Counted from the stretch's first letter, positions 3,874-48,820 are shown. The stretch is 64,000 nucleotides of DNA from an uncultured bacterium (GCA_963716985.1 OY970323.1:1024001-1088000), one strand, 5' to 3'. Notes: generated from the sequence alone by a model not told the origin. Program-made: numbers and translations.

Positions 3874-4042
3874 TGTTTTTCCCCTTGTGTTGATCTTAGG
3901 ATCTTTTTCCCGCATTAAAAAGAATCTCTCGTTTCCTTCTCTTTAGAGGGTCGATGCTATTTCGTCAATAGGTTAAAGAAAAAAACTTTACTCGTAGAGG
4001 ATTTTTTCTTATGTTCTTAAGAGGTGGCCAAAGAATCGGGGA

Positions 4043-4426
4043 ATGATGGAGTTTGTGGATTTTCTAACGGTTGTTATTTGCGCTTTTCTTTATTTTTTTT
4101 TGGATGGCTTTTTTCACTCCAAATATTTTTTTGCAACTTCCCTCGCGGCCCTGAGACGGAAAAAAAAGGGGAGATGGCTCCATTGGTGCAGCAGAGCTGT
4201 TGCCAGCTTTCTTGTCGTTTTCTTTGTGGCTTTTTTTGAAAATTACTTGCAGGTGGTTCATTTTTGGGACGGGGTCATCGCGGGGGCAATCATCGCCTTT
4301 GGCTTCATCATTCCTTCTCATTTTTTCTTATTTTTGCGGGGAGTTGAAAGCCGCACGCTTTTTTTTCTAGAAAGCGGCGTGGCTCTTTTTAATTTACTGT
4401 TGGTCGGTGGCATTTTAGCTGGTTAA
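4043..4426 (+). CDS. Small 4-TM membrane protein (DUF1761-like)
   Basis: 127 aa, four hydrophobic segments, upstream of the glycosyltransferase. Confidence 0.6.
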   Translation: MMEFVDFLTVVICAFLYFFLDGFFHSKYFFATSLAALRRKKKGRWLHWCSRAVASFLVVFFVAFFENYLQVVHFWDGVIAGAIIAFGFIIPSHFFLFLRGVESRTLFFLESGVALFNLLLVGGILAG

Positions 4427-14324: not shown

Positions 14325-14741
14325 ATGACCTATTTCAAGAGCCTTTTTTTCAATTTTCTAGCGATTTTCTTCGTCAACCACATGATTCCCGGGATCGATA
14401 TCTTGCATCCCACCAAGCTTCCGAATATTCAAGGAGATCTGATCTTTGCCTTTTCTTTGGGCCTTTTGCTCTCTCTCATCTTTCCTTTTTTCAAACTTTT
14501 CCGTCTCCATCCCGATCTGCTCAAGATTGGAGTTGCCAGTTTTTGCATCAGCTTTGTCTCTTACGCCGTGCTCAATTTTCTGCCGGTCGAGATCAAGGTG
14601 CAATCTTTTTCCGGCTATTTTTGGGGCGCATTCGTGGTTTTTTCCAGCAGTTTCCTGACCAACTTTCTTGAATGCAAACGATGTGCTTGTAAAGATGTTC
14701 CAAAGGATATTCCGGAAGAAAAAGATCCCTTTCAAAAATAG
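14325..14741 (+). CDS. 4-TM membrane protein, YvlD/phage-holin-4-like
   Basis: ATG after GGGGAG RBS; F.N...PGI, four TM segments. Confidence 0.65.
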   Translation: MTYFKSLFFNFLAIFFVNHMIPGIDILHPTKLPNIQGDLIFAFSLGLLLSLIFPFFKLFRLHPDLLKIGVASFCISFVSYAVLNFLPVEIKVQSFSGYFWGAFVVFSSSFLTNFLECKRCACKDVPKDIPEEKDPFQK

Positions 14742-14956
14742 AATTTTTCCAGACCGGCAAAAAGCGCGCACTGCGTGAAGACAATTGGGGTGTGATGGTT
14801 TTTTTTCCTACGATCTTGAGGAGACATTCAGGATGCTTTGAAAGATATCGAGCGTACCTTGCCAAAGAAAAAAAATCTGCTCTTGTTGGCAAGCAATCTC
14901 TCAGCTCCCGCAACAGATGTTTCCACCAATACACAGCTCTTGAATAGACGGACACT

Positions 14957-16476
14957 TTAAATTTTTTCGGGCACGCCTTGCTGCGCAGTGAATTTTGCCA
15001 AAAGAACTTCGAAAGCCTGCGGCGTGCGCTCGACTTGTTTATAGTGGTCATTGCCATCATAAAAAATTAAAGTGCATTTAGACATTTCGAGTTTTTGATC
15101 AACCGGCCAGGTCATCGAAATGTTATAGCCTGTCCCATGCTTCTTTTCGTCATCTCTTGTCACAAGTGCGATCTGAATATCGGGGAAGATCCTTGCAACA
15201 ATATCGAAGAAAGGCTTGTCCAGCCAAATGCCCAACCTTTGGATATGGTCAGCATACCAAAGAATAAGATTCGCTTTTTCATCGGGATCAAAGCCAGCTT
15301 TCTTTTTGAGAACATCTTGGAGTTTATAGGAAATAACCCTAGGAGTTTCTCGAGCAACTATCCTGATCGCGTGCTCAACCCCGTCCATAAAATTGGAATC
15401 TTGAATAAGATCTTGGACGTGACTTAGCATGAAATCTACCACTTGGCGGCGTAGATCTTGTTGTGTTATTTGAATTCCAAGAGCATCCATCTGTCCAGAT
15501 ACTGCCCAAGCAGCGCAATTCCCGTCATGAGGCACATCTACGAGGTGAACTTTTTCTTGAAACTCCTCAAGGGGTTTTCCTGCAGCGGCATCAGGCAAAG
15601 GAGCTGGCGGCGCCGGGGCAGGAGAAGAATCGACGCTCATTGCTACAGGCGCTGCAGCCGCAGGGACGGGGACAACTGGAGGGGCGACAGGGACAGAGGT
15701 GCTTGGAGAAGAAGGGGGAAGATCTCTCCGGCTCTGCTGCCCAGAGAAAGCTTTAATACGTCGAAGCTTTTCCAATGCAACATCAACAGTGGGGCGTTTC
15801 GTATAATCCAGATTGAGCATTTCCATGATGAGAGTTGCAAGCATCTCGGCTGTCTCCTTTGAATCGTTCCTGAAGTACGCAGCGTCCATGATTGATCGGT
15901 ATACCGAGGATTGCTTTATAGTTTCCGCTTCATCTGGTATTGAAGAAGATGGGCCACCGGCTTTTTCGGGGTTCAATTCGCATGTAAAAGAAGGTTCAAT
16001 TTGCGACCAATTCTTTGAGTTTTTGAGGAAATCTCGGTCGAAAGGTGTGCCTACTATTTTTTGCATCCAAGCAAGCTGGGCGCCATCGATTTGTTCTCGC
16101 GTTTCCGATGATTTTCCCTCACCGAACTTCAATAATCTGTCTATAAAACTAGAATAAAAGTCCCTTCGTGTATAAAGTTGAACAAAATTTAGGGCAAGAG
16201 ACCAAATATCAATCGCAGGTGTAATTTCATCAATTGGTTTCTGTGGTATAGTGTCGGGATTTCCCCATAAAATAACTTCGGGAGCTCGATCGAATCTACA
16301 CTGAATCTGTTCATTGACGGGAGGAGTGCCCTTCTTAATTACTCCGCCATAATCAATCAAATGAACCTTTAAAACGACCTTTCCGCTCTCTTTTATCACC
16401 TTTTGTTTTATCGTAGCATTGGGCAGACGAACATCGGTGTGAGTGTACCCATGATGATGAATCTGTGCCAAAGCAG
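14957..16476 (-). pseudogene. Ser/Thr kinase (C-lobe only) fused to OTU deubiquitinase; 5' part lost at IS boundary
   Basis: Begins just before HTDVRLPN catalytic loop; IDYG, RAPEV, DIWSL, R.T...AL; Pro/Ala linker; OTU motifs VPHDGNC and YDGNDHY. Confidence 0.85.
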
Positions 16477-17590
16477 CTGATCCTTATACACAAGTCAACA
16501 TCCACAACCTAAAAGCGCTCCCATTAACATGTCTTGCAATCGTTTATAACCCTTCCAAATTGTTTGCCACCCAGGCTCCCCATCTGATTTGCGCCCTATA
16601 AAACCCCCCATACGAGCCAGAGAACGCCAGAAATCTTTCACCGTTTTCAATTTCACCATCAGATGCCTTTCTATGAGCGTAATCCAAGGCTTGGGCACCT
16701 TTTCCTCGACCGGTGTTTCCGGAGACAACCGACATCGTTCTCTCATCGCTAAAAGTTGCGTTGCTATCACCCCAATCATTCCAAATAGTGCAAGAATTCG
16801 GCTCGCCTGTTTAAGCTGATTATCTTCGATTCGAAAGCCCGTTTTGACCGCCTTATGATAATCCTCTATAAGCCAGCGTCGGCGGTAGATTCTGACGATT
16901 CTTAGGGAGTCTTCTTGATTGTTGACAGGAAGATTCGTAACCAATAGCCATTCTAACCTGGGCCTATCGGGACACCACACTCGAATATACGTCACTTCTT
17001 CACCTGCTGAACCACCATTTCCTGGAGGAAACAATTTCGCTTTGACCCAAGTTATTTCCAGTGTCACTTCACCACCAAATTCTTCGCCTTTTGCTTTCAC
17101 ATACAGCGTGGATGTACACTTGGCTGTTTGTTGACGAATCCATGAAAAAAGACGTGTCTTCTCGCCATCAATCTCGACTTTGCGATCATGTCGCGCCCGC
17201 ACTACACATTTCCACCCCAGCCTATTTGCATTATTCAAAAAATCATAAATATCATTGGCGCGATCGCCAACGCTCACCCAGTTCTCCTGGGGACGTCCCA
17301 TTTTCTCTAACGTCCTCAGCCACACCTCAGATTCTTTCGAATCACTCGCCGATTTTTCTTCGGGACGCACCCAAGCCTCCTGGTAACCAAGTCCCAAAAT
17401 TTCGGTTTCTTCAGATTCATGATATTTGGCGACCAGGCATGAGTGAAACATGAGTCCATTTCCGTTACTGTCCGCGGTTGGTCCAAGTCCATGTGTCCAT
17501 GGATGGGAATTGAACAAAAGCTCTGAACCATCTTGAATAAATAGAACAAGCTGTTCCGACCAGCGCGCCTTTTCTAAGACTTGATCGTAT
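16477..17590 (-). mobile_element. Truncated IS4-family (IS50/Tn5-like) element
   Basis: Transposase frame YDQVLEKARWSEQLVLFIQDGSEL...GDRAND...WLLVTN...YRRRWLIEDYHK...GGF.GRK.DG.PGW; terminal CTGATCCTTATACACAAGT at 16477-16495; N-terminus and other end missing. Confidence 0.9.
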
Positions 17591-19298
17591 GCAATGCTTC
17601 ATCAGCAGTGATGCGGGTTCGATAATCCACATCAAGCATTCTCTCGATAAGAGTTGCAAACGAGGCAGCTAGATCTGGTGGATCGGATTTTTCGCGGGCG
17701 ATATCCACGATTGATTGCCTTACAGTTCTCTGTTCATGGGGTGTTGGAGAAGGAACGGAACAACTTGGTGCAGGTGAAGCGGACTGCCCAGCTTGAGAAA
17801 ATGAAGCGCGATCTTCTTTGGGTTTCAAGTGAGGGGTAAAAAATTGTGCAATTCGCGACCAATTCTTCGATGTTATGAGAAAACTTTGATCGAAAGACTT
17901 TCCGACCATTTTTTGCATTTCAGCAAGCTGGTCGCTATCTATTTGTTCCCGACTTGGCGGTGAGTGATCTTGTTTTGCACTTAGCTGTTGGTACTTCAAA
18001 AATGATTTTAAGTTCTTCAAAAAATCTGCTGAATAAAATGGCAATGAATAAAGTTCAGCAAGATTTTGGCCAAGAGACCAAATATCAATTGCTGTTGTAA
18101 TTTCAGGAATTGGTTCCTTTGAATCAACGTAGGCGTTTCCCCATAAAATGACTTCGGGGGCTCGCTCGAACATGCGTTGCACCTCGCTAATGACCGGAGC
18201 TGTTCCCTCTTTAAATGAAATACTCCAATCAATTAGATGAACCCTTAGGACTTTCTGGCCTTTTTTTTGTTTTATCATAAGATTGGAATCACGAACATCG
18301 GCATGAACTATCCCAAGCCTATGAATCACAGACAAAGCATTTAAGCATTGTTTTGTAATTTCAAAAAAATCTTTGAGAGGAAGTATTTGCCTAGAACGAG
18401 CCAATTTTAAAATATGCTCTATTAAGGAAACTCCATAATAGGGAGATACATAACCGATAACCGATGACTCTGGTTTATACACTCCTAGAAGTTTTGGTAA
18501 CCCATGCTTTCGATACTCTTTTGTTATTTGCATGCGTGATATTTCTTCTGCAGCCACATTAGGACGGCTAAGGATTTTGACTACAACGTCTTTGAGTTTT
18601 CCTTTTTGTTCAAGCTGTATTTTGTAAACCCTGCCGTCCGATCCACATCCAATAGGTGGTTCTGTAAGCTCAAGTTTCGTAAAAACGGGGATCTCTCTTT
18701 TTTGGACCTCTTCCACACTCACTTCCATTGAATCGTCAGTTTTCTCTGAGGGAGGCAAGTTTTCAACTTTTCTGGTTGGTGTGGAATTTATGAAAATGGC
18801 CCTTCTTTGATAACGGATGAAGCAGCAAGCGGAGATCGAAAGCATGCTAAAGGAAAAAAATGTTATGCATTCAATTGTTTTCAGGTGAGATAAGAAATTT
18901 CTTACAATGCGATTATAGAAGGCCCATAGGTTCGGAACATTTGGGGGTATTGGGGGTATAGGAGGGTCGGGTGGTTGCGGTATACCTTTCCATAAATAAA
19001 TTCCTGCTACAACCACCGACACAGCAAAAATAAGCCAGGGCAATTTTGGGGCGGATTCCGATTTTTGAGGAGATGTTCGAGTGGCAAATTGATTTGGGTC
19101 GGAAATTTTTCTAAGTCCTATTGCAACACTGGCAACGCACAGAACAATGATAAAAGGTACAAAAATAGCAATACGATAAGCAAGAAGGGACCAGGAAGAG
19201 AGTTTTTTGGGGGACCAGATAGAATTTTTTGTTCGTTGAAGGTAGCTCTCTCTTGCATGGTAATGTGATGGACTGAATCGAGGCGATATTCTCATCAT
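17574..19298 (-). CDS. Membrane-anchored eukaryote-like Ser/Thr protein kinase (3' end replaced by IS sequence)
   Basis: Three hydrophobic segments and Pro-rich linker, then IGCGSDG.VY, VVKIL, HADVRDSN, IDWS, RAPEV, DIWSLG, RITADEAL; stop codon lies within IS DNA. Confidence 0.9.
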   Translation of the reverse strand: MMRISPRFSPSHYHARESYLQRTKNSIWSPKKLSSWSLLAYRIAIFVPFIIVLCVASVAIGLRKISDPNQFATRTSPQKSESAPKLPWLIFAVSVVVAGIYLWKGIPQPPDPPIPPIPPNVPNLWAFYNRIVRNFLSHLKTIECITFFSFSMLSISACCFIRYQRRAIFINSTPTRKVENLPPSEKTDDSMEVSVEEVQKREIPVFTKLELTEPPIGCGSDGRVYKIQLEQKGKLKDVVVKILSRPNVAAEEISRMQITKEYRKHGLPKLLGVYKPESSVIGYVSPYYGVSLIEHILKLARSRQILPLKDFFEITKQCLNALSVIHRLGIVHADVRDSNLMIKQKKGQKVLRVHLIDWSISFKEGTAPVISEVQRMFERAPEVILWGNAYVDSKEPIPEITTAIDIWSLGQNLAELYSLPFYSADFLKNLKSFLKYQQLSAKQDHSPPSREQIDSDQLAEMQKMVGKSFDQSFLITSKNWSRIAQFFTPHLKPKEDRASFSQAGQSASPAPSCSVPSPTPHEQRTVRQSIVDIAREKSDPPDLAASFATLIERMLDVDYRTRITADEALHTIKS

Positions 19299-19596
19299 TT
19301 TTTCTTTAACTTCCTTAGCTTAGAGCAAAAAATGCTGCTTAACTCCTGACTTCGGCTGATGCGGCGATAGCCTAAGTTTTTTTAATTTTAAACTAATTCA
19401 TTTCTATTTTTCCCATTGCAAGTTCTACCGGCGAATCTTTCAAGAAATTTTATCACGGAAGACAATTGCATGAAAGCTAAAAAAGCTTATGCAAAGATTA
19501 AAATAATTCAGCTTTGACGTAAGCAATGCTTTAAACCTATGCCTTTAAAGGAGAAAATTTTACACCCACCAAATAAAAATCATAATTCCTTCAAAA

Positions 19597-19632
19597 AATT
19601 CCTCGAAGAGTTTTTCTCTCTTCGAGGAATCT
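19597..19632. terminator. Hairpin terminator
   Basis: attcctcgaagag...ctcttcgaggaat perfect stem downstream of the 19669-20777 gene. Confidence 0.6.
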
Positions 19633-19668
19633 GCGTGCTTTTAAAGAACCATCAACGTTCATTGCAAA

Positions 19669-20777
19669 CTAAGAAGAAGTTACCCAATCAAGAATCGAAG
19701 AAAACGTAGACTTTTTAGGTTCTGGTTTGGGTGCACCACAACATTTTGCAAACAAAGCAACAATGAGCGCAGGCACGCCAACAAAGGTGCCGAGCAAAGC
19801 GATGATGGAAGGACCGGGGGGAGGGGGGGAGGATCTGTGTGGGTAATGACGGGGATAACAACGGGTTTTTGCGTTGAATTTTGAACAGGCGTTACAAAAA
19901 AGGAACTCCAGGGAATAGCGAACGTTACTATGGTAGAAAGTGCAACTGCACTAATAATAACGACCCAGGTCGGTGTAGAGGCTAGGTTCCCGATTTGAGA
20001 AATTCTACCCCAAAGAGACGAAGAAGTTTTCTTGGGCTCTTCTGGCTTGAGATCTGCGGGCTTGGGCTTTGCGGACGTGGAGGCCTTTGGATCTGCGGAC
20101 ATAGGGGGGGTGGAACTTTCGGGCTTGGGCTTTGCAGAAACGGCACTTTGAAATTGAACAGCATCCGCGTATCGAGCTGCTAATAGGTCTGCAGTCATCA
20201 CAGCAATCTTTTGAGGTGTTGATGCGGATGATTGTTCTTCTGTTATAAGAGAGCTTTGATGAAATTGCCCCAGTACTCTACCGGCATAAATTTTTAATTG
20301 AGATAAGACCTTCTCGTCATCAGAACATGCATTATAAACCCCATGACCACTTTCTGCAAAAGAGGCATGAAATTTGTCTGGATTCAAAATAATATTTCTT
20401 GCGACTTCTCCAATTTTGACCGAAATCGTTACTTCGGGTGGTGTGGCAGGAGTTGGTGTGGGAGGAGTTGGTGTGGGAGGAGTTGGTGTGGGAGGAATAA
20501 GAACCCAATATCCATTAGAAGGCCGTATCACAAAGATGTGATCCCTTTGTAGAAAACCTACCATCTTTTCATTTGCGGGAATGTTTTTTGGGCTTCCAAA
20601 GGCTTCATAATACTCTTGCGAGGGAAACTCAATTCGTAATAATTTTGCACCTTCGAATTGGTCGTAAGTGCATGGAGAATAGCTTGCGCCGTATGCTTGT
20701 TTGTTTTCTGGGACAGGGCTGCTAGCTGCAGGTGCAGATGCGCCGGGGGATGGGACTGTACTTGTAGACGTTGTCAT
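19669..20777 (-). CDS. Putative effector: X-family domain + Ser/Pro linker + TM-Pro-TM-CC anchor, frameshifted at poly-C (19816-19829)
   Basis: ORF as assembled stops at 19680; adding one C gives DPPPPPPGPSIIALLGTFVGVPALIVALFAKCC...VTSS* ending at 19669; AAGGAG RBS. Confidence 0.7.
20446..20497 (-). repeat. 15-bp tandem repeat (PTPPT), 3 copies
   Basis: ggaggagttggtgtg x3 here versus x2 in the paralogue at ~27052-27088. Confidence 0.85.
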
Positions 20778-21622
20778 AAACAACTCCTTGTTAATTGTTT
20801 AAAGATAAAAAACAGGATTGGTCAATTACTTTTTTTGGACATTGACCGAAGAAGAAAAATTTCTGAGGACAGATCGTCATGTTCAATGTTCTCAATAAAT
20901 TTTGTTGCAAAAATGTAGAACGTTTAGACTTAAATGTAAAAAGGTTTTTTTAAGAATATAAAAATTTTTTTTAAAGGATTGGGGAGGGTTTTTTATGTCA
21001 TTAAATATAAGTATCTTGCAGGCGTCCTTGCATGCAGTTGTCTCAAAAAGTATTTTTGATTTTCCTAAAATTAACACTCGGTGAATCAGCTCTCCTCCTT
21101 TCCGGGCCAATCATTTGCCTTCGCTGCATTCTTTGTTGAGTTGACCGGCAACGGGGATTCTTCTTTCAATGACCCTCCGAATCAACCAGCCCAATGCTTG
21201 AAACTTCATTGGGCGTTTCTGATAGCATTCTCAGGAATCTAAACGAGAAAAAAGTTCTCCACTTAACGGCTTGTCTCAAGATCTGCACTCTCACCGCCTT
21301 TCCGGAGCAATACATCTTGCGGGATCCTTCTTGCCGTTTCTTCCCAATGGTGTCTGTCGAAGCCATTCCGATGAAAATGCTCTTTTGTAGGTGAAAGTGG
21401 GTTTTTGATCGTAAGCTATTGAAATTGAGTCGTTAGTTTTTATTGCATGAGGAATATGCCGGGAAAATCGAAATGCCTCGAGATCTCTTTGCGGTTCTTT
21501 TTTTATAAGACTATGGTTTTTATTGTGTTAATTTAAATTTATAATTAAATTGAATAAAAACTTTATAAACATGATAATTAGCTTAGAATAATAAAGTGCT
21601 GTTTATTGCATGTGGAGGAGCC

Positions 21623-23782
21623 TTGAAACCAAAGACCAAGGTGCAGATCATAACGACCAATGAGGCAATCGATAATCTAACAACGATTGCCGAAACGGAC
21701 TTTAATGCAAATACGCTGCTCGGCGTTGTGGATCAGGCGCGCTTTGTCTTGTCCGATCAAGACTATACGATGGGATCCATACAATGGCTGGCTCCTGAAA
21801 ATGCATCGGAAATTTTGGAGGTCATGAGAGTGACCTACCGAGCGCTCTTTCAATACCTCTGTGATCTTTATGAAAATATGCTCACCGATTGGGAAGATCT
21901 CAAATTGAAAAAGTCGCTCCAGGAGATGATGGAGATTGCCGGAGAGGCGGCGAGTGGGTTGGATCGCTATCTGGCGCTTTTCCCCGGCGTGATGGAGCGC
22001 GCATCGGAACTTGCGGAATACAAAGAGGTTCGTGCCTACTTTCTCGAAAGAATTGTTCCTAAATTCGACGGAGGCGTCGAAGGAGATCAAGAGTGGGCGC
22101 GCGAGTGGGTGGAAAACGAAGAGGCGTTAAATTTCGATCTGGAAAGAAGAGGGCTGAAAGATTTCGAAACGGTCCGAAGAGATCGCGAATATGAGCTTTT
22201 TTATGTCCGCGATGAAAATGACCGGCCTTTTTTTACTCCCGAGCTTTTGCGCAACATCAAACTCGTCTGCGATTTTGATGCAGCTGCCGGAGAGGAGTTG
22301 ACTGAAGACCCTCTGTTGAAAATTCAGGATTTTCAAGATCGCGATCATCATGCTGCAGCTTTGCAAATTCTGCATCTTGTCGACCCCTACATGCGCGATT
22401 TCTACAAAAGCCGCATCAACCATAAGGAACACGAGCTGGCCGCGCTTCTTCACAAGGCGCTTTTCGCCTTGATGCTTGCGGCAAATGAGAGGCATTTGAT
22501 GGCCAGAACCGGCAATAAACATTGCCTGCTCTATTTCGAGGATTTTCAGACGTTTTTACGAGAGGCGCTGACTTGCGACGAATACCAGAAGATTTTGGCT
22601 TATGAAGAGTCTGAGGTCACCTCCGCATCCCATGTGCTTTTGCGTTTGACCCACCATCTTTGCAAGGCGTTTTATTTGCGCACATCCGGCATAAAAGAAG
22701 AGATGATTGGGTTCATTTATCATCTGATCCATAAGGGAAAAGATAGAAAGGCAAAAAAAACAAAAGAGCCCGAGAGCGTTTTAGCAAAGATCGTTGAGAA
22801 TGACGATTCGATGCGCTTTTTCTTACGCTTTTTTCCCAATGGGGCCATCTTTAAGGACCTCGACGTGGTGAGGAGCAAAGAGGTCGTGGGGTTTGATCCT
22901 ATTTTGCAGAGAAATGATCCCGCAAAGCTCTATTCGGCCCATATCGATGGGCGTGTAGTGCAAATCGTTAAAATTCCCTCTCCCACAAGACAAGAGATCA
23001 TCACAAAAGCCAAGGTCGTTCCGGAATTTTTAGGATTTTTGCGTGCTGACGTTCGCGAAAAGCATCCCAAAAAACATCTCATGGTCCAGCTGCAAGATAA
23101 AACGTCATGGAAAGAGTTTGCCAGGGTCAAGGTATTGGAAGATTTGCAAAGAGAGGCCGAATGGAAGGGAAATCTTGTGGTTTTGACCCTAACGAAGGAT
23201 ACCGATTTTTATTTTCAAAACGGAGAGTATCTTTCTTTGGATCTTGCAAAGGATTTCATCGAGAACTTTTTCCAGCAGATCGAGAGCGCCGAGTGCGGAT
23301 ATTATCTTCCGCCGCTTGTGCAGACGGAAACGATGAAAAAAACGATCCTAGACCTTCTTTTTTGGGTTCATGAGAATTTCTTTGAAAGCAAAGAGCTTCT
23401 CAATCGAAAGGAGCGGTTGGATTTCATCGAGATTTTTTACCATTTCTTCATTTTGCGCTTGATCAAAGAAATCAAGCCGGACAGCATCAGCTTTACTTGC
23501 AAGGATGCGGTGGATGTCGGCGGGTCTTTGAGCGCATCTTTTTATGCTTTTATCAAGATTCTTTCCCAGCAAGTGCTCATCAAGCAGGATGAGGATTTTT
23601 TATTCTATCTTTTTTATGCCTGCCCGCTTCTAGTGCGCGAAAGGGCCATCGACCCTCAAAGGTTGCATCGTCTCCTATCTGCCCTCTCTCAGATCGAGAG
23701 CGGTTTGAAACGACGGGGAAAAGAGATCGTAAAAGAGGTAAGTTCTCTTTATGGATCAGATTTGGGAGCCGCTTCCTTTTGA
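21623..23782 (+). CDS. Conserved chlamydial-type hypothetical protein (~720 aa)
   Basis: Long ORF, TTG after GGAGGAG; D.EYELFY, PSPT.QE, ERLDFIEIFY, FTCKDAVD motifs. Confidence 0.8.
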   Translation: MKPKTKVQIITTNEAIDNLTTIAETDFNANTLLGVVDQARFVLSDQDYTMGSIQWLAPENASEILEVMRVTYRALFQYLCDLYENMLTDWEDLKLKKSLQEMMEIAGEAASGLDRYLALFPGVMERASELAEYKEVRAYFLERIVPKFDGGVEGDQEWAREWVENEEALNFDLERRGLKDFETVRRDREYELFYVRDENDRPFFTPELLRNIKLVCDFDAAAGEELTEDPLLKIQDFQDRDHHAAALQILHLVDPYMRDFYKSRINHKEHELAALLHKALFALMLAANERHLMARTGNKHCLLYFEDFQTFLREALTCDEYQKILAYEESEVTSASHVLLRLTHHLCKAFYLRTSGIKEEMIGFIYHLIHKGKDRKAKKTKEPESVLAKIVENDDSMRFFLRFFPNGAIFKDLDVVRSKEVVGFDPILQRNDPAKLYSAHIDGRVVQIVKIPSPTRQEIITKAKVVPEFLGFLRADVREKHPKKHLMVQLQDKTSWKEFARVKVLEDLQREAEWKGNLVVLTLTKDTDFYFQNGEYLSLDLAKDFIENFFQQIESAECGYYLPPLVQTETMKKTILDLLFWVHENFFESKELLNRKERLDFIEIFYHFFILRLIKEIKPDSISFTCKDAVDVGGSLSASFYAFIKILSQQVLIKQDEDFLFYLFYACPLLVRERAIDPQRLHRLLSALSQIESGLKRRGKEIVKEVSSLYGSDLGAASF

Positions 23783-23792
23783 TGCTCGATGA
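23749..23792. repeat. 44-bp overlap repeat, copy 1 (supplies the 3' end of 21623-23782)
   Basis: ttatggatcagatttgggagccgcttccttttgatgctcgatga; homologous to 26727, 27589 and 28373. Confidence 0.85.
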
Positions 23793-23817
23793 GTTCTCAT
23801 ATTTCTCTTTCTTTTTT

Positions 23818-25203
23818 CTATTTTTTTATAGGATAAACGAAAATGGTTTTGAGAAAAGCTTCATTGTTTAGAGAATCTAAGAAAGAAAGAGTATAGGTAA
23901 AAACTTCATTTTTTTTACAGTTATGGTCGTAAAATTCTAATGGGCCGTCCGAGAGGACGACTCCAATAGGAAGAGTCAAATTCCCATTGCGATAGATGGC
24001 ATAGCTTGTCGCATTGCTAACAGGTGTCCATGAAAGTTTATTAACCAGTTCACTTACTGTAGCAAAAGAATTATTGATCTGGTCTCCCTTAAAACTAGAA
24101 TAAGGATAAGCGGGCGAAGCGATAGAATTGATGGCCAAAGCAATATAGATAGGCCCTTCTCCTACTGCAATTGTTTTTATGACGGTATTCGTTGATGTTT
24201 GTAAAAGGCTAACGCTATTATTTCCTTGATTGCAAACATACCCATAAGATTCATCAGGGGTGATTGTTATACTCAGTGGCCTCAACCCTACGGGAATAGT
24301 TGTAATAACCGTGTCACTAGATGTTTGGATCGCGCTGATCGTATTATCGGCACTATTGCACACGTAAACTTTCGACCCACTTGGAGTAATCGTTGAGAAC
24401 ACCGGGTGGTTTCCTACTGAAATAGAATCAATCACCGTGTTAGTAGATGTTTGAATGACACTGACTCTGTTGCTTACAAAATTACAAACATAAGCTTTGG
24501 TTCCATCTGGGGTAATCTTTATATCAATCGGGTTCGTTGCCACAACAATTGTTGCAATGGGCATATTGTCCGATGTTCGAATGGCGGTGACAATGCCACC
24601 GCTAAAAGTACAGACATAAACTTTTGATCCGTCGGGGGTAATGGCGATAGAATTGGGTTCAACTCCTAAAGGAATCGTTGCGGTGACGGTGTTATCGGAT
24701 GTGCGGATGACGCTAATGCTGTCACTTTGAGAATTAGAAACATAAACATGAGATCCATCAGGAGATATGACTACTCTAGAGGGAAAGGAACCTACAGTAA
24801 CAGTCGTGACAGTATTATCTGATGTTCGAATGACACTGACAGTGCCGCTCTGAAGATTGCAAACATAAACTTGCGTTCCATCAGGAGTGATTGCTATTGC
24901 TTCCGGATAGGTTCCCACAGAAATTGTTGCAGCGATTGTGTTGTCGGATGTTTGAATGACGCTGACAGAATCACTGAGAATATTGCAAATATAAGCTTTC
25001 GTTCCATCGGGAGATATCGCCACAGGAGTGATCTCTATAGACTCCGGGTCCAATCCTACGGGAATTGTTGCAACGATTGTGTTATCAGACAATCGAATCG
25101 CACTAACAGTGCTACCAACTGAATTCGTAACAAAAGCTGTTTGTTCTGTAGCAAATAAAGAAATGCTCATAAGAAAGCTTAGAAAAAACAACTTTTTCTT
25201 CAC
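23818..25203 (-). CDS. YncE/YVTN-repeat beta-propeller protein, secreted
   Basis: Signal peptide; ~8 repeats of VG..P..I.I(T/S)PDG..YV.N..S..VSVI.TS.NT. Confidence 0.92.
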   Translation of the reverse strand: MKKKLFFLSFLMSISLFATEQTAFVTNSVGSTVSAIRLSDNTIVATIPVGLDPESIEITPVAISPDGTKAYICNILSDSVSVIQTSDNTIAATISVGTYPEAIAITPDGTQVYVCNLQSGTVSVIRTSDNTVTTVTVGSFPSRVVISPDGSHVYVSNSQSDSISVIRTSDNTVTATIPLGVEPNSIAITPDGSKVYVCTFSGGIVTAIRTSDNMPIATIVVATNPIDIKITPDGTKAYVCNFVSNRVSVIQTSTNTVIDSISVGNHPVFSTITPSGSKVYVCNSADNTISAIQTSSDTVITTIPVGLRPLSITITPDESYGYVCNQGNNSVSLLQTSTNTVIKTIAVGEGPIYIALAINSIASPAYPYSSFKGDQINNSFATVSELVNKLSWTPVSNATSYAIYRNGNLTLPIGVVLSDGPLEFYDHNCKKNEVFTYTLSFLDSLNNEAFLKTIFVYPIKK

Positions 25204-25277
25204 ACATCTTCTCCATTCAGCATGACAGTTTTAATTCGAGCGACCATGCGTTTGTCTCTCTCTTTTTTTGTTGCAAT

Positions 25278-25421
25278 CTCAACTGAGCTTAAGAACTGAG
25301 GCGGCATTCCAAGGTGCCCATATATTCGCTCCTAACATAGTCTCTAAATGCGCAAGAGACTTAAGGCTGGTCAACCTCAGGCTTGATCTCTCAAGCATCT
25401 CCCTTGGGAGGGGTGGTTGAC
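25278..25421 (-). ncRNA. Truncated HEARO/omega-RNA-like element (IscB transposon end), no iscB ORF
   Basis: Minus strand GTCAACCACCCC..AAGGG..GCTTG..AAGCC..GTTGACCAGCCTTAAG..GACTATGTTA..GGCACCTTGGAATGC..CCTCAGTT, matching the recalled order of omega-RNA 5' motifs. Confidence 0.72.
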
Positions 25422-25840
25422 AATTCCGCTTCAGGAATTTTATTATTGAAAAATAGTACATAAACAAAAAAATTCAGTCAAATTTTTTTTTGAATGCTTT
25501 ATCTCGCAGGGCTTTTATGAGATTTTTCCTGACGTCGCCTCGCTCTATGAAATGTACAACCTTCACGATTTAGCGCAGCACATTTTGAACGCTGTTGCAG
25601 ACCACGTCAACTTGTACGTTTTGTCTATGAGCAGGCAAGGTCAAGAATCTCTAGAAAAAGTCCTGTTTATCTTGGCTCTGCCATAAAAATTTGAAAAAAA
25701 TTACACAATCTGTTGATTACAACGCGAGTTAATGAAATACTTGACAAAGGTCAACATTATGCTGAGCCATATGTTCTCGTCACCCTTGAGGAAGAGGTAA
25801 TGTTTTTCGCAATTTCATCCACAGTGAAAAGAGAATTGCA

Positions 25841-26455
25841 ATGAAGGTAAAATTTTTTACATTTGTTTTCTGTTTTCTTCCACTGTTCGGTTCGGCAAGT
25901 TCACAGGTTTCTTCCCCTTCCAACCTGGAAGTAAAAACTGGCTATTTCTTTTTCACATCATCGCGTATGCAATGCGTGTATGATGAAGGGGGGCTCGACG
26001 TGCAGCTTTCTGGAACCTTAGGTTTTTGGCACTGGATGCGTCTTTATGGAAGCATGGAATATTTGCAAAAATCGGGCCACTCTCTCAATATCCACCAGCC
26101 CACTTCGATCTGGGAGCTTCCTTTAAGCTTTGGCCTGCAGACCTGGATACCGGTTTTTACCTCTTCAGACGATCACAAAAAAGTAGCCTTTTATCTGACA
26201 TTGGGACCGAGATATTCCTTCGTTTTTGTCCGAAACCATTCCAAATACGTCGATAACAAAATGAAGGAGAATGGAATCGGCGGTTTTGCCAATCTGGGAC
26301 TATTTGCTTCGATCAATCCCCATTTAAACTTTGATTTCTTTGGCGAATATTCCTATGCAAGACTACACTTCCATAGCTCGCACTTCGAAACCCAAGGCCA
26401 TACCGTTCAGATAGGCGGTCTTGCCTTCGGCGCTGCCGTAGGATATGCGTTTTGA
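25841..26455 (+). CDS. Small outer-membrane beta-barrel protein
   Basis: Signal peptide, alternating aromatic beta-strand pattern, C-terminal GYAF. Confidence 0.8.
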   Translation: MKVKFFTFVFCFLPLFGSASSQVSSPSNLEVKTGYFFFTSSRMQCVYDEGGLDVQLSGTLGFWHWMRLYGSMEYLQKSGHSLNIHQPTSIWELPLSFGLQTWIPVFTSSDDHKKVAFYLTLGPRYSFVFVRNHSKYVDNKMKENGIGGFANLGLFASINPHLNFDFFGEYSYARLHFHSSHFETQGHTVQIGGLAFGAAVGYAF

Positions 26456-26801
26456 GCCAGTCGGCATCAGCTTTACTTGCAAGGATGCGGTGGGTGTCGG
26501 CGGGGCTTTGAGCGCATCTTTTTATGCTTTTATCAAGATTCTTTCCCAGCAAGTGCTCATCAAGCAGGATGAGGATTTTTTATTCTATCTTTTATGCCTG
26601 CCCGCTTTTAGTGCGCAAAAGGGCCATCGATCCTCAAAGGTTGCATCGTCTCCTATCTGCCCTCTCTCAGATCGAGAGCGGTTTGAAACGACGGGGAAAA
26701 GAGATCGTAAAAGAGGTAAGTTCTCTTTATGGATCAGATTTGGGAGCCGCTTCCTTTTGATGCTCGATGATATCTTCATTGTAGAGCTTTAAAGAATCCA
26801 T
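26455..26801 (+). pseudogene. Duplicated 3' end of the 21623-23782 gene joined to a duplicated mlaD 3' end
   Basis: Near-identical to 23475-23792 with a 2-nt T deletion; 26761-26801 matches mlaD 28407-28447. Confidence 0.88.
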
Positions 26802-26835
26802 CGAGCAGGTTTCTTGGAGTTTTCTCACGAGGGAG

Positions 26836-27369
26836 CTACGTTAGGGTGTCCTGAAGGGAGTCTTTATAAAGCTGTCTCATTACCTTACCGGCATAAATTT
26901 TTAATTGAGATAAGACCTTCTCGTCATCAGAACATGCATCATAAACCCCATGACCACTTTCTGCAAAAGAGGCATGAAATTTGTGTGGATTCAAAATAAT
27001 ATTTCTTGCGACTTCTCCAATTTTGACCGAAATCGTTACTTCGGGTGGTGTGGCAGGAGTTGGTGTGGGAGGAGTTGGTGTGGGAGGAATAAGAACCCAA
27101 TATCCATTAGAAGGCCGTATCACAAAGATGTGATCCCTTTGTAGAAAACCTACCATCTTTTCATTTGCGGGAATGTTTTTTGGGCTTCCAAAGGCTTCAT
27201 AATACTCTTGCGAGGGAAACTCAATTCGTAATAATTTTGCACCTTCGAATTGGTCGTAAGTGCATGGAGAATAGCTTGCGCCGTATGCTTGTTTGTTTTC
27301 TGGGACAGGGCTGCTAGCTGCAGGTGCAGATGCGCCGAGGGATGGGACTGTACTTGTAGACGTTGTCAT
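26836..27369 (-). CDS. X-family hypothetical protein, stand-alone copy 1
   Basis: Near-identical to the 5' part of 19669-20777, own short C-terminus, same RBS/upstream region. Confidence 0.75.
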   Translation of the reverse strand: MTTSTSTVPSLGASAPAASSPVPENKQAYGASYSPCTYDQFEGAKLLRIEFPSQEYYEAFGSPKNIPANEKMVGFLQRDHIFVIRPSNGYWVLIPPTPTPPTPTPATPPEVTISVKIGEVARNIILNPHKFHASFAESGHGVYDACSDDEKVLSQLKIYAGKVMRQLYKDSLQDTLT

Positions 27370-27557
27370 AAACAACTCCTTGTTAATTGTTTAAAGATAA
27401 AAAACAGGATTGGTCAACTGCTTTTTTAAGACATTGTCCGAAGAGCAGACACTCCTGTGTTTGGATCTTCATTTTCAAAGATCGCAATAAATTTCTTCGC
27501 GAAAGCATAGAGCGTTTAGGCTTAAATGTAAAGTCGAGAGTGGGTGGAATCCGAGGA

Positions 27558-27628
27558 GAAAAGAGATCGTGAAAGAAGTAAGTTCTCTTTACGGATCAGA
27601 TTTGGGAGCTGCTTGCTTTTGATGCTCT
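27558..27628. repeat. Overlap repeat, copy 3 (diverged)
   Basis: gaaaagagatcgtgaaagaagtaagttctctttacggatcagatttgggagctgcttgcttttgatgctc. Confidence 0.85.
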
Positions 27629-27698
27629 ATACAAGTAGAGCTTCCTTTTGCTTTTGCGCAAAGAAGAGCGGGTTTCTCGGAATTTTCTGGAGCGGGAG

Positions 27699-28181
27699 CT
27701 ACTTTACGATCCTCTGAAGGGATTGTCGATAAAGTTGACTCATTACCTTACCGGCATAATCTTTTAATTGACGCAAGACCCGGCTGTCGTCAGCACTATT
27801 AACATCCACTGCATCCCGACGTGAAGAAGAGCTGCAGAATTGGGTTAGATTCAAGGTAACATATCTTGCGACATCTCCCATTTCGATCGCAATCGTTAAT
27901 TCTTTTTGGGATGTCGTGCCGGGAACTGGGGATGCTGTAAGGGGAACACAAGTCCAATACCCGGTCCTAGCGTGCACCACAAAGCAAAGTTCGTTAAGCG
28001 CCAAACCTACCATCTTTTCATTATATGTTTGCTCGGAAAGCTCAAAGCGTAATAATTTTGCGCCTGCGAATGGGTCGTGGATGGGAGGGTGTTTCTCGTC
28101 CCATGTTTGTGATTTTTGCCGGATGGGACTGCCGGCTGCAGGTGCTGATGCTCCAATGCTTGAAACTCCGACTGTAGACAT
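27699..28181 (-). CDS. X-family hypothetical protein, stand-alone copy 2 (diverged)
   Basis: Shares F.GAKLLR.E, NEKMVG, GYW, G.VAR...LN, DD..VL.QLK.YAGKVM.QLY with copy 1. Confidence 0.75.
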   Translation of the reverse strand: MSTVGVSSIGASAPAAGSPIRQKSQTWDEKHPPIHDPFAGAKLLRFELSEQTYNEKMVGLALNELCFVVHARTGYWTCVPLTASPVPGTTSQKELTIAIEMGDVARYVTLNLTQFCSSSSRRDAVDVNSADDSRVLRQLKDYAGKVMSQLYRQSLQRIVK

Positions 28182-28372
28182 GAACAACCCCTTGTTAATT
28201 GTTTAAAGGCATTTCCTGAAAAAACAAGATAGAGCAACTGCTTTTTTAAGACATTGTCCGAAGAGGAAAAACTTCTGAGGACGGATCTTCATTTTTAACG
28301 TTGTCAATAATTTTTTTTTCGTAAAAATGTAGAGCTTTGAGGCTTAAAAGTAAAGTCGAAAGCATGTGGAAT

Positions 28373-29626
28373 CTATGGATCGCACTTAGGAGGCGATTCC
28401 TGTTGGTGCTCGATGATATCTTCATTGTAGAGCTTTAAAGAATCCATGAGTCCATCGACTTTTTGGAGCAGGTCCGCAAAATCTTTTTTAAAAGAGGGGC
28501 TTTGGAGTATTTCTGTTTTGTTTTTTCTCTGCTCTGCTCTTTCAAGAAGCATCGAGAGTCGTTCGATGCCCACGTTGATTCCGTCGATCTCCCCTTCATA
28601 AAATTGACGAAATTCCTTCGGCGTTTGAAGTGCTTGGAGCAGGTTGGCCCTTTTCGTGCGTATGCGCTGCCAGTGTTTGTCATATTGGAAGAGCAGGCCA
28701 TAATGGTTGATGTCGTTCATGAGCGTATCGACTTTGCTCATGATATTGGTGAATCGAAGATAGAAATCCTCATCTGAAATGAGTTTTCCGAGTGTTCCTT
28801 TTCCATTGGCGATGTCTTTTGTGAATTTATTGATATTCGCCAGCATTTCGCCTCCATCGGTTTTGATGGATTTGCTGGCATCGACGAAGTTGGTGAGTAT
28901 TTCATCGAATTTGGAGACCATTTCATTTTGGTGCATCTCTTGCAGGGCATCGCGTATCAACTTCATATTGTCGGTAAAGACATCGACGGCATCTTTGACG
29001 GATGAGACCATGTCCTTTTCGTTAAAACTTTTTAGGGTGACATGCGCTTCTCCCATAGCGTTGGCAAAGGATTGGATCGCCTCTGAAAGCTCTTCTTTGT
29101 TTTCCATGAACCATTGTTCGAAATTGCCCACGGCGCTGTCCAGTTTTTCCGCGACGGAAGAGACCTCGTGAAAGGCCTGCTCGAGAGGTTCTGTGGAATC
29201 GGCATAGAGGATCTGGTCGGTGACTAGCTTGGCCTCTTCTCCTTTTCCCGGAGCCATGGGGATAATGGCAATGGACTTTTCTCCTAAAAGGCCGGTGGTC
29301 CGAATGGCGAGCTGATCGGTATTGTAGATCTCAACGCTGGAATCTACGCGAAGGGTCAATTCATAAAAGTAGATCCTGCCCAAAGCATCCACTTGATCTT
29401 CTCTAGCCGTTTTCACCTCTTTGATGGCGGCTACTTCTCCGACGGGCTTTCCCGCGAGGGTCACTCTTGTGCCAATCGAAATGCCGGCAACGTTGGAAAA
29501 ACGTACGTGCAGGATTTTTTTTCCATCTCCGATGGAGGGTTTGAAAAAGAGAATAGCCCAGGCAACTGCGAACATGGCGGCGACGATAAAAAGTCCAATG
29601 AGGAGATTTTTCATTTGTTCAGACAT
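28373..29626 (-). CDS. mlaD: MlaD/MCE-family protein
   Basis: N-terminal TM, MCE domain (F.NVAGI..G..V.LAG..VGEV, TTGLLGEK), coiled coil, GTLGKLI.D. Confidence 0.88.
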   Translation of the reverse strand: MSEQMKNLLIGLFIVAAMFAVAWAILFFKPSIGDGKKILHVRFSNVAGISIGTRVTLAGKPVGEVAAIKEVKTAREDQVDALGRIYFYELTLRVDSSVEIYNTDQLAIRTTGLLGEKSIAIIPMAPGKGEEAKLVTDQILYADSTEPLEQAFHEVSSVAEKLDSAVGNFEQWFMENKEELSEAIQSFANAMGEAHVTLKSFNEKDMVSSVKDAVDVFTDNMKLIRDALQEMHQNEMVSKFDEILTNFVDASKSIKTDGGEMLANINKFTKDIANGKGTLGKLISDEDFYLRFTNIMSKVDTLMNDINHYGLLFQYDKHWQRIRTKRANLLQALQTPKEFRQFYEGEIDGINVGIERLSMLLERAEQRKNKTEILQSPSFKKDFADLLQKVDGLMDSLKLYNEDIIEHQQESPPKCDP

Positions 29627-30407
29627 TTTTTCTCTCCTTTCTGACACGGGGATGATTTTCTAAGGTATCTTTTAAGAATTTAATGATCGGATCATCGATC
29701 TGCATAAAGCTATCGGGATCGGCAATATAAAGAATTTTTCCGTCTTTTAAAAGAGCGATGCGGTCGGCGACAAAAAGGGCCGAGTGGATGTCATGCGTGA
29801 CGATGATGCTGGTCCCTTTGAGCTCATTTTGCGTTTTGATGATGAGCTCATTGATGGTTTGAACGGTAAGAGGATCTAAGCCCGTAGTGGGTTCATCATA
29901 AAGAAGAATGCTGGGACGATAGGCAATGAGGCGGGCAAGGGCGGCCCGTTTTTTCATGCCTCCGGAAAGATCGGAGGGCATTTTCTTTTCCGTGTTTTCG
30001 AGCCCTACCATAGAAAGAGATTCTCTGACGCGTGCTTTGATTTCTTCTTTTGAGAAAAATTTCCCCGAATGGGGGTCGGGATTATGCTTTAAGTAAAAGC
30101 CCGTATTTTCTTCGATGTTGAGAGAGTCGAAAAGGGCGGACCCTTGAAAGAGCATTCCCATGTTTTTCACGGCGTCTGCATACTCTTTTTTCTTTAATGC
30201 CGAAATGTTCACGCCGTCGATTTCTACGCATCCCTTGTCCGGTTTTTCAAGGCCGAGAATCTGGCGAAGGAGCACGCTTTTCCCAATGCCGGACCGTCCT
30301 AATATAACGATGATTTCCCCTTGCAGGATCTCCAAAGAAAGACCTTGCAAAACCGGGTTTTTCTCATATTTTTTCCAAAGATCTTTGATCTGGATCATTG
30401 TGCCCAA
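29619..30407 (-). CDS. mlaF: MlaF-type ABC ATPase
   Basis: GRSGIGKS, FQGSALFDSL, LSGGMKKRAALAR, LYDEPTTGLDP, VTHD. Confidence 0.92.
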   Translation of the reverse strand: MGTMIQIKDLWKKYEKNPVLQGLSLEILQGEIIVILGRSGIGKSVLLRQILGLEKPDKGCVEIDGVNISALKKKEYADAVKNMGMLFQGSALFDSLNIEENTGFYLKHNPDPHSGKFFSKEEIKARVRESLSMVGLENTEKKMPSDLSGGMKKRAALARLIAYRPSILLYDEPTTGLDPLTVQTINELIIKTQNELKGTSIIVTHDIHSALFVADRIALLKDGKILYIADPDSFMQIDDPIIKFLKDTLENHPRVRKERKNV

Positions 30408-35403: not shown

Positions 35404-36449
35404 ACGCGATGTGCGAGTTTTTCAAAGCAAAAAATCACACGTAAAAAAATAATTGAAAAATGACAAGTCCTTACTGCACACTGTTTTGCGACAAAACAAC
35501 AACAGGAGTTCAGGACATGTCGATTGATGATTTTATCATAACCACCTTTTGTTTGATAGATGATGAGATGAAGAAGGTTCTTGCAGACGAGAAATTTCGT
35601 CAAAGAGGTCCCTCGCCTAGATTGAAAGACAGCGAGGTTATTACGATGGAGGTCGTTGGAGAATTTTTTGGAATGGACCGTGACAAAACCATTTGGGAAT
35701 ATTTCAAAAGGCACTGGTTGCATTTCTTTCCAAATATTCCTGCACGTTCGAATTTTGTCAGGCAAGCGGCCAACCTTCATGTAGTAAAGCGATTGTTACA
35801 AGAGAGTTTAGCAACTGACCTACATGCTCTTTCTGATTCATTGCACATAATAGACGGGCTTCCTATTCCAGTTTGCAAATTTGCCAGAGCTCACTTTAGC
35901 AAAAATTTCAAGGGCGACGCTGCATATGGATATTGTGCTACAAAAAAAGAGCACTTTTATGGTTTTCGAGGCCATGTTGTCATCAGTTCAATAGGGGTGG
36001 TGACAGCAGCTACATTCGCCAAGGCAAACATTGATGAGCGCGATGTGTGTCCTGAGATTGTGGAAAAAATCGGAGGGCTTTTGTTGGGAGACAAAGGTTT
36101 TATACGACCTGGATTGAAAGAGTTGCTCAAAAAACAAGGGTTGTACTTGCAAACTTCGCTGAGAGAAAATATGAAAGATGAAAGACCGAAGAAATTTTTG
36201 AAATGGCTGGTAGGGACTCGGCGACTGGTTGAAACAGTTATAGGGCAGCTCAATGATAGATTTCGGATTGAAAAAGTATGGGCGCGAGATTTATGGCATC
36301 AATTTTCAAGATTTTGGAGAAAATTACTGGCGCATACTGTCGGCATTAAACTTAATGTAAACGCAGGGAACGAGCCTTTACAGTTTGACCAGTTGCTTTG
36401 TTCTTAAAAGCATAGGCGATTTTTCGCTTTATAAACTCGCACATCGCGT
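35404..36449 (+). mobile_element. IS982-family element, copy 1 (1046 bp; transposase 35517-36407)
   Basis: Terminal IR ACGCGATGTGCGAGTTT; 6-bp TSD GACTTA; IDG.PIP.C, GY......YG, GDKG, R..VETV..QL motifs. Confidence 0.95.
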
Positions 36450-46127: not shown

Positions 46128-47173
46128 ACGCGATGTGCGAGTTTATAAAGCGAAAAATCGCCTATGCTTTTAAGAACAAAGCAACTGGTCAAACTGTAAA
46201 GGCTCGTTCCCTGCGTTTACATTAAGTTTAATGCCGACAGTATGCGCCAGTAATTTTCTCCAAAATCTTGAAAATTGATGCCATAAATCTCGCGCCCATA
46301 CTTTTTCAATCCGAAATCTATCATTGAGCTGCCCTATAACTGTTTCAACCAGTCGCCGAGTCCCTACCAGCCATTTCAAAAATTTCTTCGGTCTTTCATC
46401 TTTCATATTTTCTCTCAGCGAAGTTTGCAAGTACAACCCTTGTTTTTTGAGCAACTCTTTCAATCCAGGTCGTATAAAACCTTTGTCTCCCAACAAAAGC
46501 CCTCCGATTTTTTCCACAATCTCAGGACACACATCGCGCTCATCAATGTTTGCCTTGGCGAATGTAGCTGCTGTCACCACCCCTATTGAACTGATGACAA
46601 CATGGCCTCGAAAACCATAAAAGTGCTCTTTTTTTGTAGCACAATATCCATATGCAGCGTCGCCCTTGAAATTTTTGCTAAAGTGAGCTCTGGCAAATTT
46701 GCAAACTGGAATAGGAAGCCCGTCTATTATGTGCAATGAATCAGAAAGAGCATGTAGGTCAGTTGCTAAACTCTCTTGTAACAATCGCTTTACTACATGA
46801 AGGTTGGCCGCTTGCCTGACAAAATTCGAACGTGCAGGAATATTTGGAAAGAAATGCAACCAGTGCCTTTTGAAATATTCCCAAATGGTTTTGTCACGGT
46901 CCATTCCAAAAAATTCTCCAACGACCTCCATCGTAATAACCTCGCTGTCTTTCAATCTAGGCGAGGGACCTCTTTGACGAAATTTCTCGTCTGCAAGAAC
47001 CTTCTTCATCTCATCATCTATCAAACAAAAGGTGGTTATGATAAAATCATCAATCGACATGTCCTGAACTCCTGTTGTTGTTTTGTCGCAAAACAGTGTG
47101 CAGTAAGGACTTGTCATTTTTCAATTATTTTTTTACGTGTGATTTTTTGCTTTGAAAAACTCGCACATCGCGT
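46128..47173 (-). mobile_element. IS982-family element, copy 2 (inverted relative to copy 1)
   Basis: Same IRs and identical transposase translation; 7-bp TSD GATATTA. Confidence 0.95.
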
Positions 47174-48552: not shown

Positions 48553-48758
48553 GAGAAAAACCCTTTTTTGTATTTTTTCAAACATTCTAATCCTTTTCAT
48601 CGGTTAAGTCAATAGAAGCTTTTCTGCAATTATTTAAAAAGTTTTTTGAATAGACTTTGTTTCAGGACATCCCTTTTTCTCAAAAATGTCTTTTGCAAGG
48701 GATCTTTTGGTTTGGATTTTTGAAAAGCACTCATGATTGGAGCCGGTTGTTTACCTTA

Positions 48759-48792
48759 AAAAAAAGACCGACCCTTTGAGAGGGGTCGGCCA
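48759..48792 (-). terminator. Repeated terminator of array units (copies near 50918 and 52380)
   Basis: aaaaaaagaccgaccct..aggggtcggcc hairpin with T-tract on the minus strand. Confidence 0.7.
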
Positions 48793-48820
48793 TTGGTCTT
48801 TTGAAGATTCCCGTCCCTTA

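Follow-up and report, generated by a model that had tools for sequence, protein, structure and literature searches.

Tandem segmental duplication, unequal crossover and gene conversion are the general means by which bacteria amplify their genes. Islands that integrate at a gene's 3' end and supply a substitute for it are represented by the e14 prophage of E. coli K-12, which sits in icd: the working end of this gene is carried by the element, and a displaced 3' fragment, icdC, is left on the far side (PMC13626634). For mitochondrial gene order, a model of tandem duplication and random loss has been set out, in which a block is duplicated, redundant copies are lost and a new arrangement remains (PMC4223735). 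Studies of overlapping bacterial genes mostly treat the origin of overlaps by shifts of start or stop codons, and one of them calls the loss of overlaps neglected (PMC4161906); the word "duplication" occurs neither in that article nor in PMC3843671, and the literature searched yielded no account of an overlap that was opened through copying of the shared end. Here we describe a locus of an uncultured bacterium (G000, a 2.07-Mb single-contig genome; GCA_963716985.1) in which two convergent genes, geneA and an MlaD/MCE-family gene, now end 4.6 kb apart with four genes between them. The locus lies in a stretch of 64,000 nucleotides (nt) analysed as a whole (G000:C1:1024001-1088000, hereafter the window, to whose first letter positions refer unless a genome is named). 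The island between the two genes is most likely the scar of a gene overlap that was opened by duplication through ordinary recombination, and not the product of a dedicated integration system.

GeneA (21596-23782, plus strand, 728 amino acids (aa)) belongs to no family in Pfam or NCBIfam, and the MlaD gene (28373-29647, minus strand, 424 aa), with MlaF and MlaE next to it, matches PF02470 and, below their cut-offs, TIGR00996 and TIGR04430. A preliminary description of the window had placed four geneA/MlaD tail junctions at 23749, 26727, 27589 and 28373, with each gene intact at one outer copy and cargo between successive copies, and all of this was recovered: copy A (23475-23792, plus strand) provides the working 3' end of an intact geneA, copy D (28373-28447) that of an intact MlaD, and the inner copies B and C are relics. 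A YVTN beta-propeller repeat protein gene and a small outer membrane protein (OMP) gene lie between A and B, a gene named X1 between B and C, and its paralogue X2 between C and D. Copy A comprises the last 308 nt of geneA, including the former 34-nt overlap (23749-23782), and 10 nt of MlaD tail (23783-23792). Copy B (26455-26801, the MlaD tail possibly reaching ~26819) consists of a frameshifted piece of the geneA 3' end (26455-26760) and a piece of the MlaD tail (26727-26801) whose minus strand reads MDSLKLYNEDIIEHQKEAAPKSDP up to a stop codon; on the plus strand geneA ends in SSLYGSDLGAASF, and A and B both close with YGSDLGAASF and a stop. Copy C (27534-27665) retains 97 nt of the geneA 3' end, with the frame open to a TGA (27534-27622), and then a decayed MlaD tail. 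Before copy D stands an 18-nt remnant of the geneA 3' end (28356-28373, equivalent to 23694-23711; repeat family D11), after which 38 nt are deleted.

BLAST of the region on the window aligned A with B over 318 nt (23475-23792 against 26455-26770; 96.9% identity, E 3e-150), A with C over 97 nt (23694-23790 against 27534-27630; 85.6%, E 6e-26) and B with D over 74 nt (26728-26801 against 28374-28447; 89%, E 1.4e-21). To the left the repeats A, B, C and D extend 318, 318, 97 and 18 nt, and to the right 10 nt, 41 nt or more, a decayed 41 nt and the full gene. The uniform 44-bp repeat proposed earlier thus gives way to longer and uneven copies, 44 nt being only what A and D share directly (25 of 33 positions in the overlap, block o33, and 10 of 10 beyond it, block b10). 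A 99-nt probe from the geneA tail gave three BLAST matches in the whole genome, namely A, B and C, and no further copy; D is recognisable through B. The relics at 26455-26801 and 27534-27665 could mislead annotation pipelines into calling small genes or attachment (att) sites.

The predicted empty site was found in the only congener among the 41 genomes searched (40 relatives and the genome studied here). In this congener, G001, the 3' ends of the two genes share 34 nt tail-to-tail and no cargo is present, as expected from the ancestral overlap that had been claimed; geneA ends in RLYGSDFGVASS and MlaD in LYNEDLIQRQEEATPKSDP, each before its stop, and all four window copies can be aligned with this sequence. 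GeneA is present in 37 and MlaD in 39 of the 41 genomes, and the two are convergent on one contig in 18 of the 40 relatives; of the other 22, two carry both genes on a single contig but arranged differently, and in the remainder the genes fall on separate contigs or a match is missing. In four further genera the genes abut, overlapping by 4, 8 and 4 nt in G022, G005 and G004 and separated by 8 nt in G015; the gap is 48 nt in G020 and 180 nt in G010. The remaining 11 of the 18 convergent relatives carry 0.7-3.9 kb of cargo between geneA and MlaD, different in nearly every genus: an FkbM methyltransferase, an MFS transporter, a glycosyltransferase, AlgH-like genes (twice), an autotransporter with YggU and an AAA ATPase, an RlmI-like methyltransferase, Ppx/GppA, a dual-specificity phosphatase and genes without family. 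From these arrangements the convergent pair is therefore old and its interval a recurrent site of gene flux, variable across the family to judge by the genomes compared.

Neither the 11 cargo-bearing loci nor G010 show duplicated gene ends, some inverted repeats only, and copying of the ends is required for insertion only where they overlap deeply, that is, in this genus. In the 56 nt before the overlap (block a56), A and C are identical at 48 of 57 positions, against 37 of 59 for A and G001 and 36 of 58 for C and G001; because A and C are closer to each other than either is to G001, the duplication is later than the split from G001. Nine metagenome loci, none of them from this genus, carry genes 37-42% identical to geneA; MlaD lies within ~90 nt in six, one is cut off, in two MlaD does not lie within 7 kb, and none of the nine is an intermediate state. 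As a separate observation, the inverted repeats in the geneA-MlaD space are near-perfect in G016 (3841-4233 and 761-993), G010 (690-872) and G006 (699-886), with lengths of 128, 59, 30 and 21 nt, and could be miniature inverted-repeat transposable elements or two-way terminators.

X1 (unit 1, 26836-27533; coding sequence (CDS) 26836-27375, minus strand, 179 aa; upstream region 27376-27533) and X2 (unit 2, 27699-28355; CDS 27699-28187, minus strand, 162 aa; upstream region 28188-28355) form part of head-to-tail units of ~860 bp (26672-27551 against 27534-28373; 908 aligned columns, BLAST E 1.8e-83) that run in the order geneA tail (97 nt), overlap, MlaD tail, X on the minus strand, X upstream region. 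The two align in register across coding and non-coding sequence, with repeat families D7-D11 and D14 spaced 812-863. A third member of this orphan family, Xp (CDS 19680-20783, minus strand, 367 aa, with its upstream region to 20940), lies left of geneA; its stretch 20247-20940 is 91% identical to 26854-27532, and it likely supplied the X cassettes or served as their partner. X1, X2 and Xp have homologous upstream regions as far as the equivalent of 20940, where homology ends, and in both units this point is fused to the equivalent of 23694 in the geneA tail, a novel joint that reads ttaaatgtaaag followed by tcgagag at 27533/27534 and ttaaaagtaaag followed by tcgaaag at 28355/28356. Such a joint is the product expected from deletion of 20941-23693, and the order and orientation of X, its upstream region and geneA in the units are those of Xp and geneA to the left.

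In these respects the locus resembles gene amplification, with head-to-tail units in register including non-coding flanks, a common novel joint, mosaic tracts of identity and a neighbouring paralogous source with matching order and orientation. It differs in that the endpoints of the island are dictated by a dual-coding overlap, so that duplication also resolves the overlap, and in that one cargo block, the YVTN and OMP genes, is no local duplicate. Direct duplications at short range abound in this genome (317 nested high-scoring pairs 0.3-12 kb apart). A metagenome contig (run X2) joins 26875 to 27739, a skip of 863 or exactly one unit, but is only ~88% like X2; it gives no more than a hint of polymorphism in unit number or sequence.

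X belongs to no family in Pfam or NCBIfam, gave no usable hit in the ESM Atlas and no match in any of the 40 relatives and, beyond X1 and X2, has no member in the near-length range searched of a 5.8-billion-protein library; an AlphaFold model built on a 3-sequence alignment had a mean predicted local distance difference test score (pLDDT) of 38 and was unusable. Between X1 and X2 the ratio of nonsynonymous to synonymous divergence (dN/dS) is 0.74 at a dS of 0.57, both frames being open. From these comparisons of sequence, we read X as a fast-evolving, lineage-restricted gene family.

Identity along the copies is mosaic. A and B agree at 209 of 219 positions over the first 219 nt (block a221) and at all 99 of the last 99; in the 31 nt that follow, B matches D, and these two copies are identical at 41 of 41 positions in block b41, while in the overlap A and D agree at only 25 of 33. 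Likewise, dS is 0.034 between X1 and the N-terminal part of Xp, against 0.57 between X1 and X2. Patterns of this kind mark gene conversion as ongoing, with relic B kept like the working ends A and D and X1 homogenised with Xp, and on the same evidence the X1 unit appears as one overwritten by, or copied from, Xp. A low-depth metagenome contig carries a copy B with two bases that are missing from the B of the window, a hint that the state of this copy varies among strains. At 26762-26806, copy B also contains an 8-bp stem (GCTCGATG/CATCGAGC), followed by a T-rich run on the plus strand, in which the 10 nt common to A, B and D pair with the first bases past the MlaD-derived tail; it may be a terminator for the OMP gene or the mark of a template switch at the joint.

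Taken together, the probable mechanism in our estimate combines duplication and deletion with unequal crossover and gene conversion, all under the constraint that both genes be kept whole. The ancestor would have had geneA and MlaD convergent with 34 nt of coding DNA in common. DNA placed between them would truncate a gene unless the shared end was copied, and therefore only duplicating events would survive selection. First, a tandem segmental duplication would have begun at a short X gene to the left of geneA, spanned geneA and ended within the MlaD tail, and the redundant geneA body would then have been deleted, leaving geneA, overlap, MlaD tail, X, and X upstream region fused to a 97-nt geneA tail, overlap and MlaD; we infer this duplication and deletion from the structure of the joint. 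Second, unequal crossover between the flanking repeats of geneA tail, overlap and MlaD tail would have doubled the unit to give X1 and X2, a step well supported by the register and the common joint. Third, the YVTN and OMP genes would have arrived just behind geneA with 318 nt duplicated in the event, likely by single crossover of a circular piece at shared homology or by duplication with filler DNA. Fourth, as the mosaic identities show, gene conversion holds relic B identical to the ends in A and D and has homogenised X1 with Xp. Once separated, each working end would be constrained by one gene only. This sequence of events recalls the mitochondrial model insofar as a block is duplicated, redundant copies are lost and a new arrangement results (PMC4223735); it differs in that the island lies on a bacterial chromosome and that what has been kept are the ends of two protein genes that overlapped, now with new genes in between.

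If so, the locus offers a concrete and datable example, with a matched empty site in a congener, of another route to the loss of overlaps, along which the shared end is copied, one copy per gene is kept and the relics serve as neutral ground and as handles for recombination. The site freed in this way can become a nursery for taxonomically restricted genes such as the X family.

The YVTN and OMP genes form a 2.66-kb block between A and B, beyond whose two stop codons only 25 nt and 0 nt remain. The YVTN gene (23818-25203, minus strand; signal-peptide-like N-terminus) matches PF10282 and PF21783, and TIGR02276 in six stretches; 6963 relatives were found among 8000 candidates scored, none more than 53% identical, and for this reason no donor is named. 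The OMP gene (25841-26455, plus strand; C-terminus GYAF before the stop codon, which abuts copy B) encodes a small beta-barrel that matches PF13505 below the cut-off (E 8e-5). Their nearest paralogues in the genome have 42% protein identity for YVTN, and 58% and then 44% for OMP. YVTN-like and OMP genes are neighbours at another locus of this genome too, and in G005, G004 and G001. The GC content of third codon positions (GC3) is 35% in the YVTN gene and 47% in the OMP gene, and 34-47% in all cargo versus 52-61% in geneA and MlaDFE. A single crossover of a circular piece, a trans-acting recombinase and duplication with filler all fit an entry of this block that came with a 318-nt duplication.

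Just upstream of the YVTN gene, the stretch 25235-25421 (minus strand) matches the HEARO model (RF02033, the IscB omega-RNA) over its full span with 38 bits, where the gathering score is 83, and is 80-86% identical to copies in the genome; we read it as a decayed HEARO copy. The genome holds nine copies above the Rfam gathering score (104-143 bits) and one at 67 bits, at G000:C1 positions 1818584-1820186, 166141-~168035, 1669794, 1919348, 1491365, 389149, 21236, 35378, 1003298 and 1222537. Two copies are followed by an IscB-type open reading frame (ORF) of ~452-464 aa with RRXRR and HNH domains (checked in Pfam at 1818584), the others being solo, and in at least five the right-end sequence (LSNRMKK) runs into the start of a signal-peptide-like host ORF. 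The spacer between the YVTN and OMP genes also contains a 125-nt repeat (25541-25665) whose sole other genome copy lies at G000:293842-293968 (80%).

Several points weigh against the history proposed above. The YVTN and OMP genes have no close genomic paralogue and left no trace to the left of geneA, so pure local duplication fails to explain them, and their tight boundaries look cassette-like. No homology to Xp is detectable in the 16-52 nt that separate the MlaD-derived tail from the X stop codons (in a shuffle test of the X 3' flank, 50 and 66 of 300 shuffles scored equally), and for that reason the left end of the first duplication is not demonstrated; Xp could also be a copy and not the source. 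Because of gene conversion, the age and order of the events are unreadable from the identities. The genome and metagenome searches brought up no further genome of the lineage in an intermediate state, and among the 32 metagenome pieces listed two of the six joints of the island were bridged and the other four were not.

The main rival is that the YVTN and OMP genes, and perhaps an X cassette, entered as a small non-autonomous element carrying gene ends, in the manner of e14, through a recombinase encoded elsewhere or a Campbell-type single crossover, so that the element's copy A now works and the original end is displaced as B. We regard this integrative model as unlikely on the whole, and give an e14-like or Campbell-type insertion of the YVTN and OMP block the same low standing. 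A working end and a displaced, frameshifted 3' fragment are what is seen at icd and icdC (PMC13626634), where insertion into a gene's 3' end is tolerated with the end duplicated, one copy working and the other displaced past the cargo, and where recombination between copies can restore a single gene. The empty site in G001, the atypical GC3 and tight boundaries of the cargo, the presence of YVTN and OMP pairs at other loci and in other genera, from which the module could travel, and 11 PF00589 matches in the genome that could act in trans are all consistent with it. Set against this, neither the island nor the window contains a recombinase, the repeat extents differ from copy to copy without a common core boundary, the deletion-type joint of the X units is not predicted by integration, and no circle or excision joint was seen in four metagenome runs, which as contigs only are weak evidence. 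The island also departs from e14, the closest case described: e14 has its own site-specific excision system whereas here an integrase is absent from the island and its vicinity, the duplicated piece belongs to two genes at once on opposite strands and occurs in four copies of unequal extents, and two cargo units arose by tandem duplication of a gene next door.

Far less probable is that the island was ancestral to the genus and that the empty site of G001 is secondary, produced by recombination between A and D that re-fused the genes. A crossover within the 44 nt common to A and D would give exactly the overlapping pair, and the overlap is too short to date (25 of 33 identical positions for A and D, 24 of 33 for A and G001, 21 of 33 for D and G001). 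The copies descend from one dual-coding sequence in any case, however, and the 56 nt before the overlap place A much closer to C (48 of 57) than to G001 (37 of 59); X occurs in none of the 40 relatives, nor outside this genome in the 5.8e9-protein library over the near-length range, and geneA and MlaD abut in four other genera.

It is about as doubtful that the 44-nt junction is an att site for a remote tyrosine recombinase, one of the 11 in the genome. If true, the locus would be a recombinase-remote, integron-like platform that stacks small cassettes, an orphan family included, where two essential-looking genes join. The preliminary description had suggested repeated att-like integration or duplication at a constrained site; the duplication is supported, and the att-like part is not, since the boundaries differ at each copy. 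Because of these differing extents there is no common core boundary, and thus no common core with equal boundaries across copies of the kind expected of a site-specific element; a search for circles, confined to contigs of the four metagenome runs and hence to weak data, revealed no circle joint. The statement that the window lacks a recombinase is correct for tyrosine and serine recombinases, with neither PF00589 nor PF00239 found in Pfam scans of seven locus ORFs and 48 other window ORFs, and incorrect in that three DDE transposase ORFs lie there. In the genome, the nearest of the 11 PF00589 matches is at 1098476 (~46 kb from the island), and the one PF00239 match is at 1917018 (1.917 Mb).

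Integron arrays share with the island a row of short gene units with copies of one repeat between them, and X1 and X2 are co-oriented. The island differs from such arrays in having no IntI or attI, the window holding no tyrosine recombinase; in addition, its repeats are gene ends and not attC hairpins (z -0.55 to -1.94), its units carry their own upstream regions and its boundaries are not fixed. No attC-type hairpin was found at the cassette boundaries when the four junctions were folded on both strands (z -1.94 to +1.41; 10-191 of 200 shuffles folded as well), and a consensus scan returned just weak 5-pair stems at 23764-23776 and 26742-26754. The junction as a structured site or terminator was rejected on these folds, which are no better than shuffles. 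The duplications, of 44 to 318 nt, are not the fixed-length target duplications of insertion sequences, and none of the four inverted-repeat pairs listed joins the ends of the island, since they connect other positions or are weak (for example 23809-23833/25167-25191, at 72%). Apart from the island, seven of the 11 tyrosine-recombinase matches cluster in ~90 kb at G000:C1 878297-969343, 55-146 kb before the window, which may be a large integrative or conjugative region.

Near-identical low-depth contigs covering parts of the island were found in four metagenome runs from four studies. The joint between the OMP gene and the geneA fragment at 26455 is bridged in two runs and that between the X2 upstream region and MlaD (28355-28373) in one, in each case with 0 differences. 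An assembly artefact, with repeats collapsed or mis-joined in the single contig, is highly improbable: although 318-nt repeats at 97-100% identity can mislead short-read assemblers and two of the six joints are bridged by independent contigs among the pieces listed, the copies differ in extent and sequence so that each joint is unique, contigs of different studies match the two bridged joints exactly, and the ORFs are intact on both sides.

Beyond the island, a second stretch absent from G001 (14678-21529, 6.85 kb) lies just left of geneA and contains Xp. It also encodes a 574-aa Ser/Thr-kinase-like protein, a truncated Tn5/IS4-like DDE transposase (16495-17517) and a 504-aa ORF with the C-terminal half of a kinase, in which a further motif is presumably OTU-like; all genes of the stretch have low GC3 (34-44%). 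To the right, two 315-aa ORFs assigned by Pfam to DDE_Tnp_1_3 transposases (35460-36407, plus strand, and 46170-47117, minus strand), with identical Pfam scores, are inverted ~10 kb apart and flank a radical-SAM gene, TamB, Omp85 and a sulfate permease; the segment 35460-47117 could be composite or invertible. Further on, 47830-55695 (G000 1073067-1077193) is a tandem array of several paralogous ORFs of ~210-310 aa without a Pfam family, whose units share 84-92% nucleotide identity.

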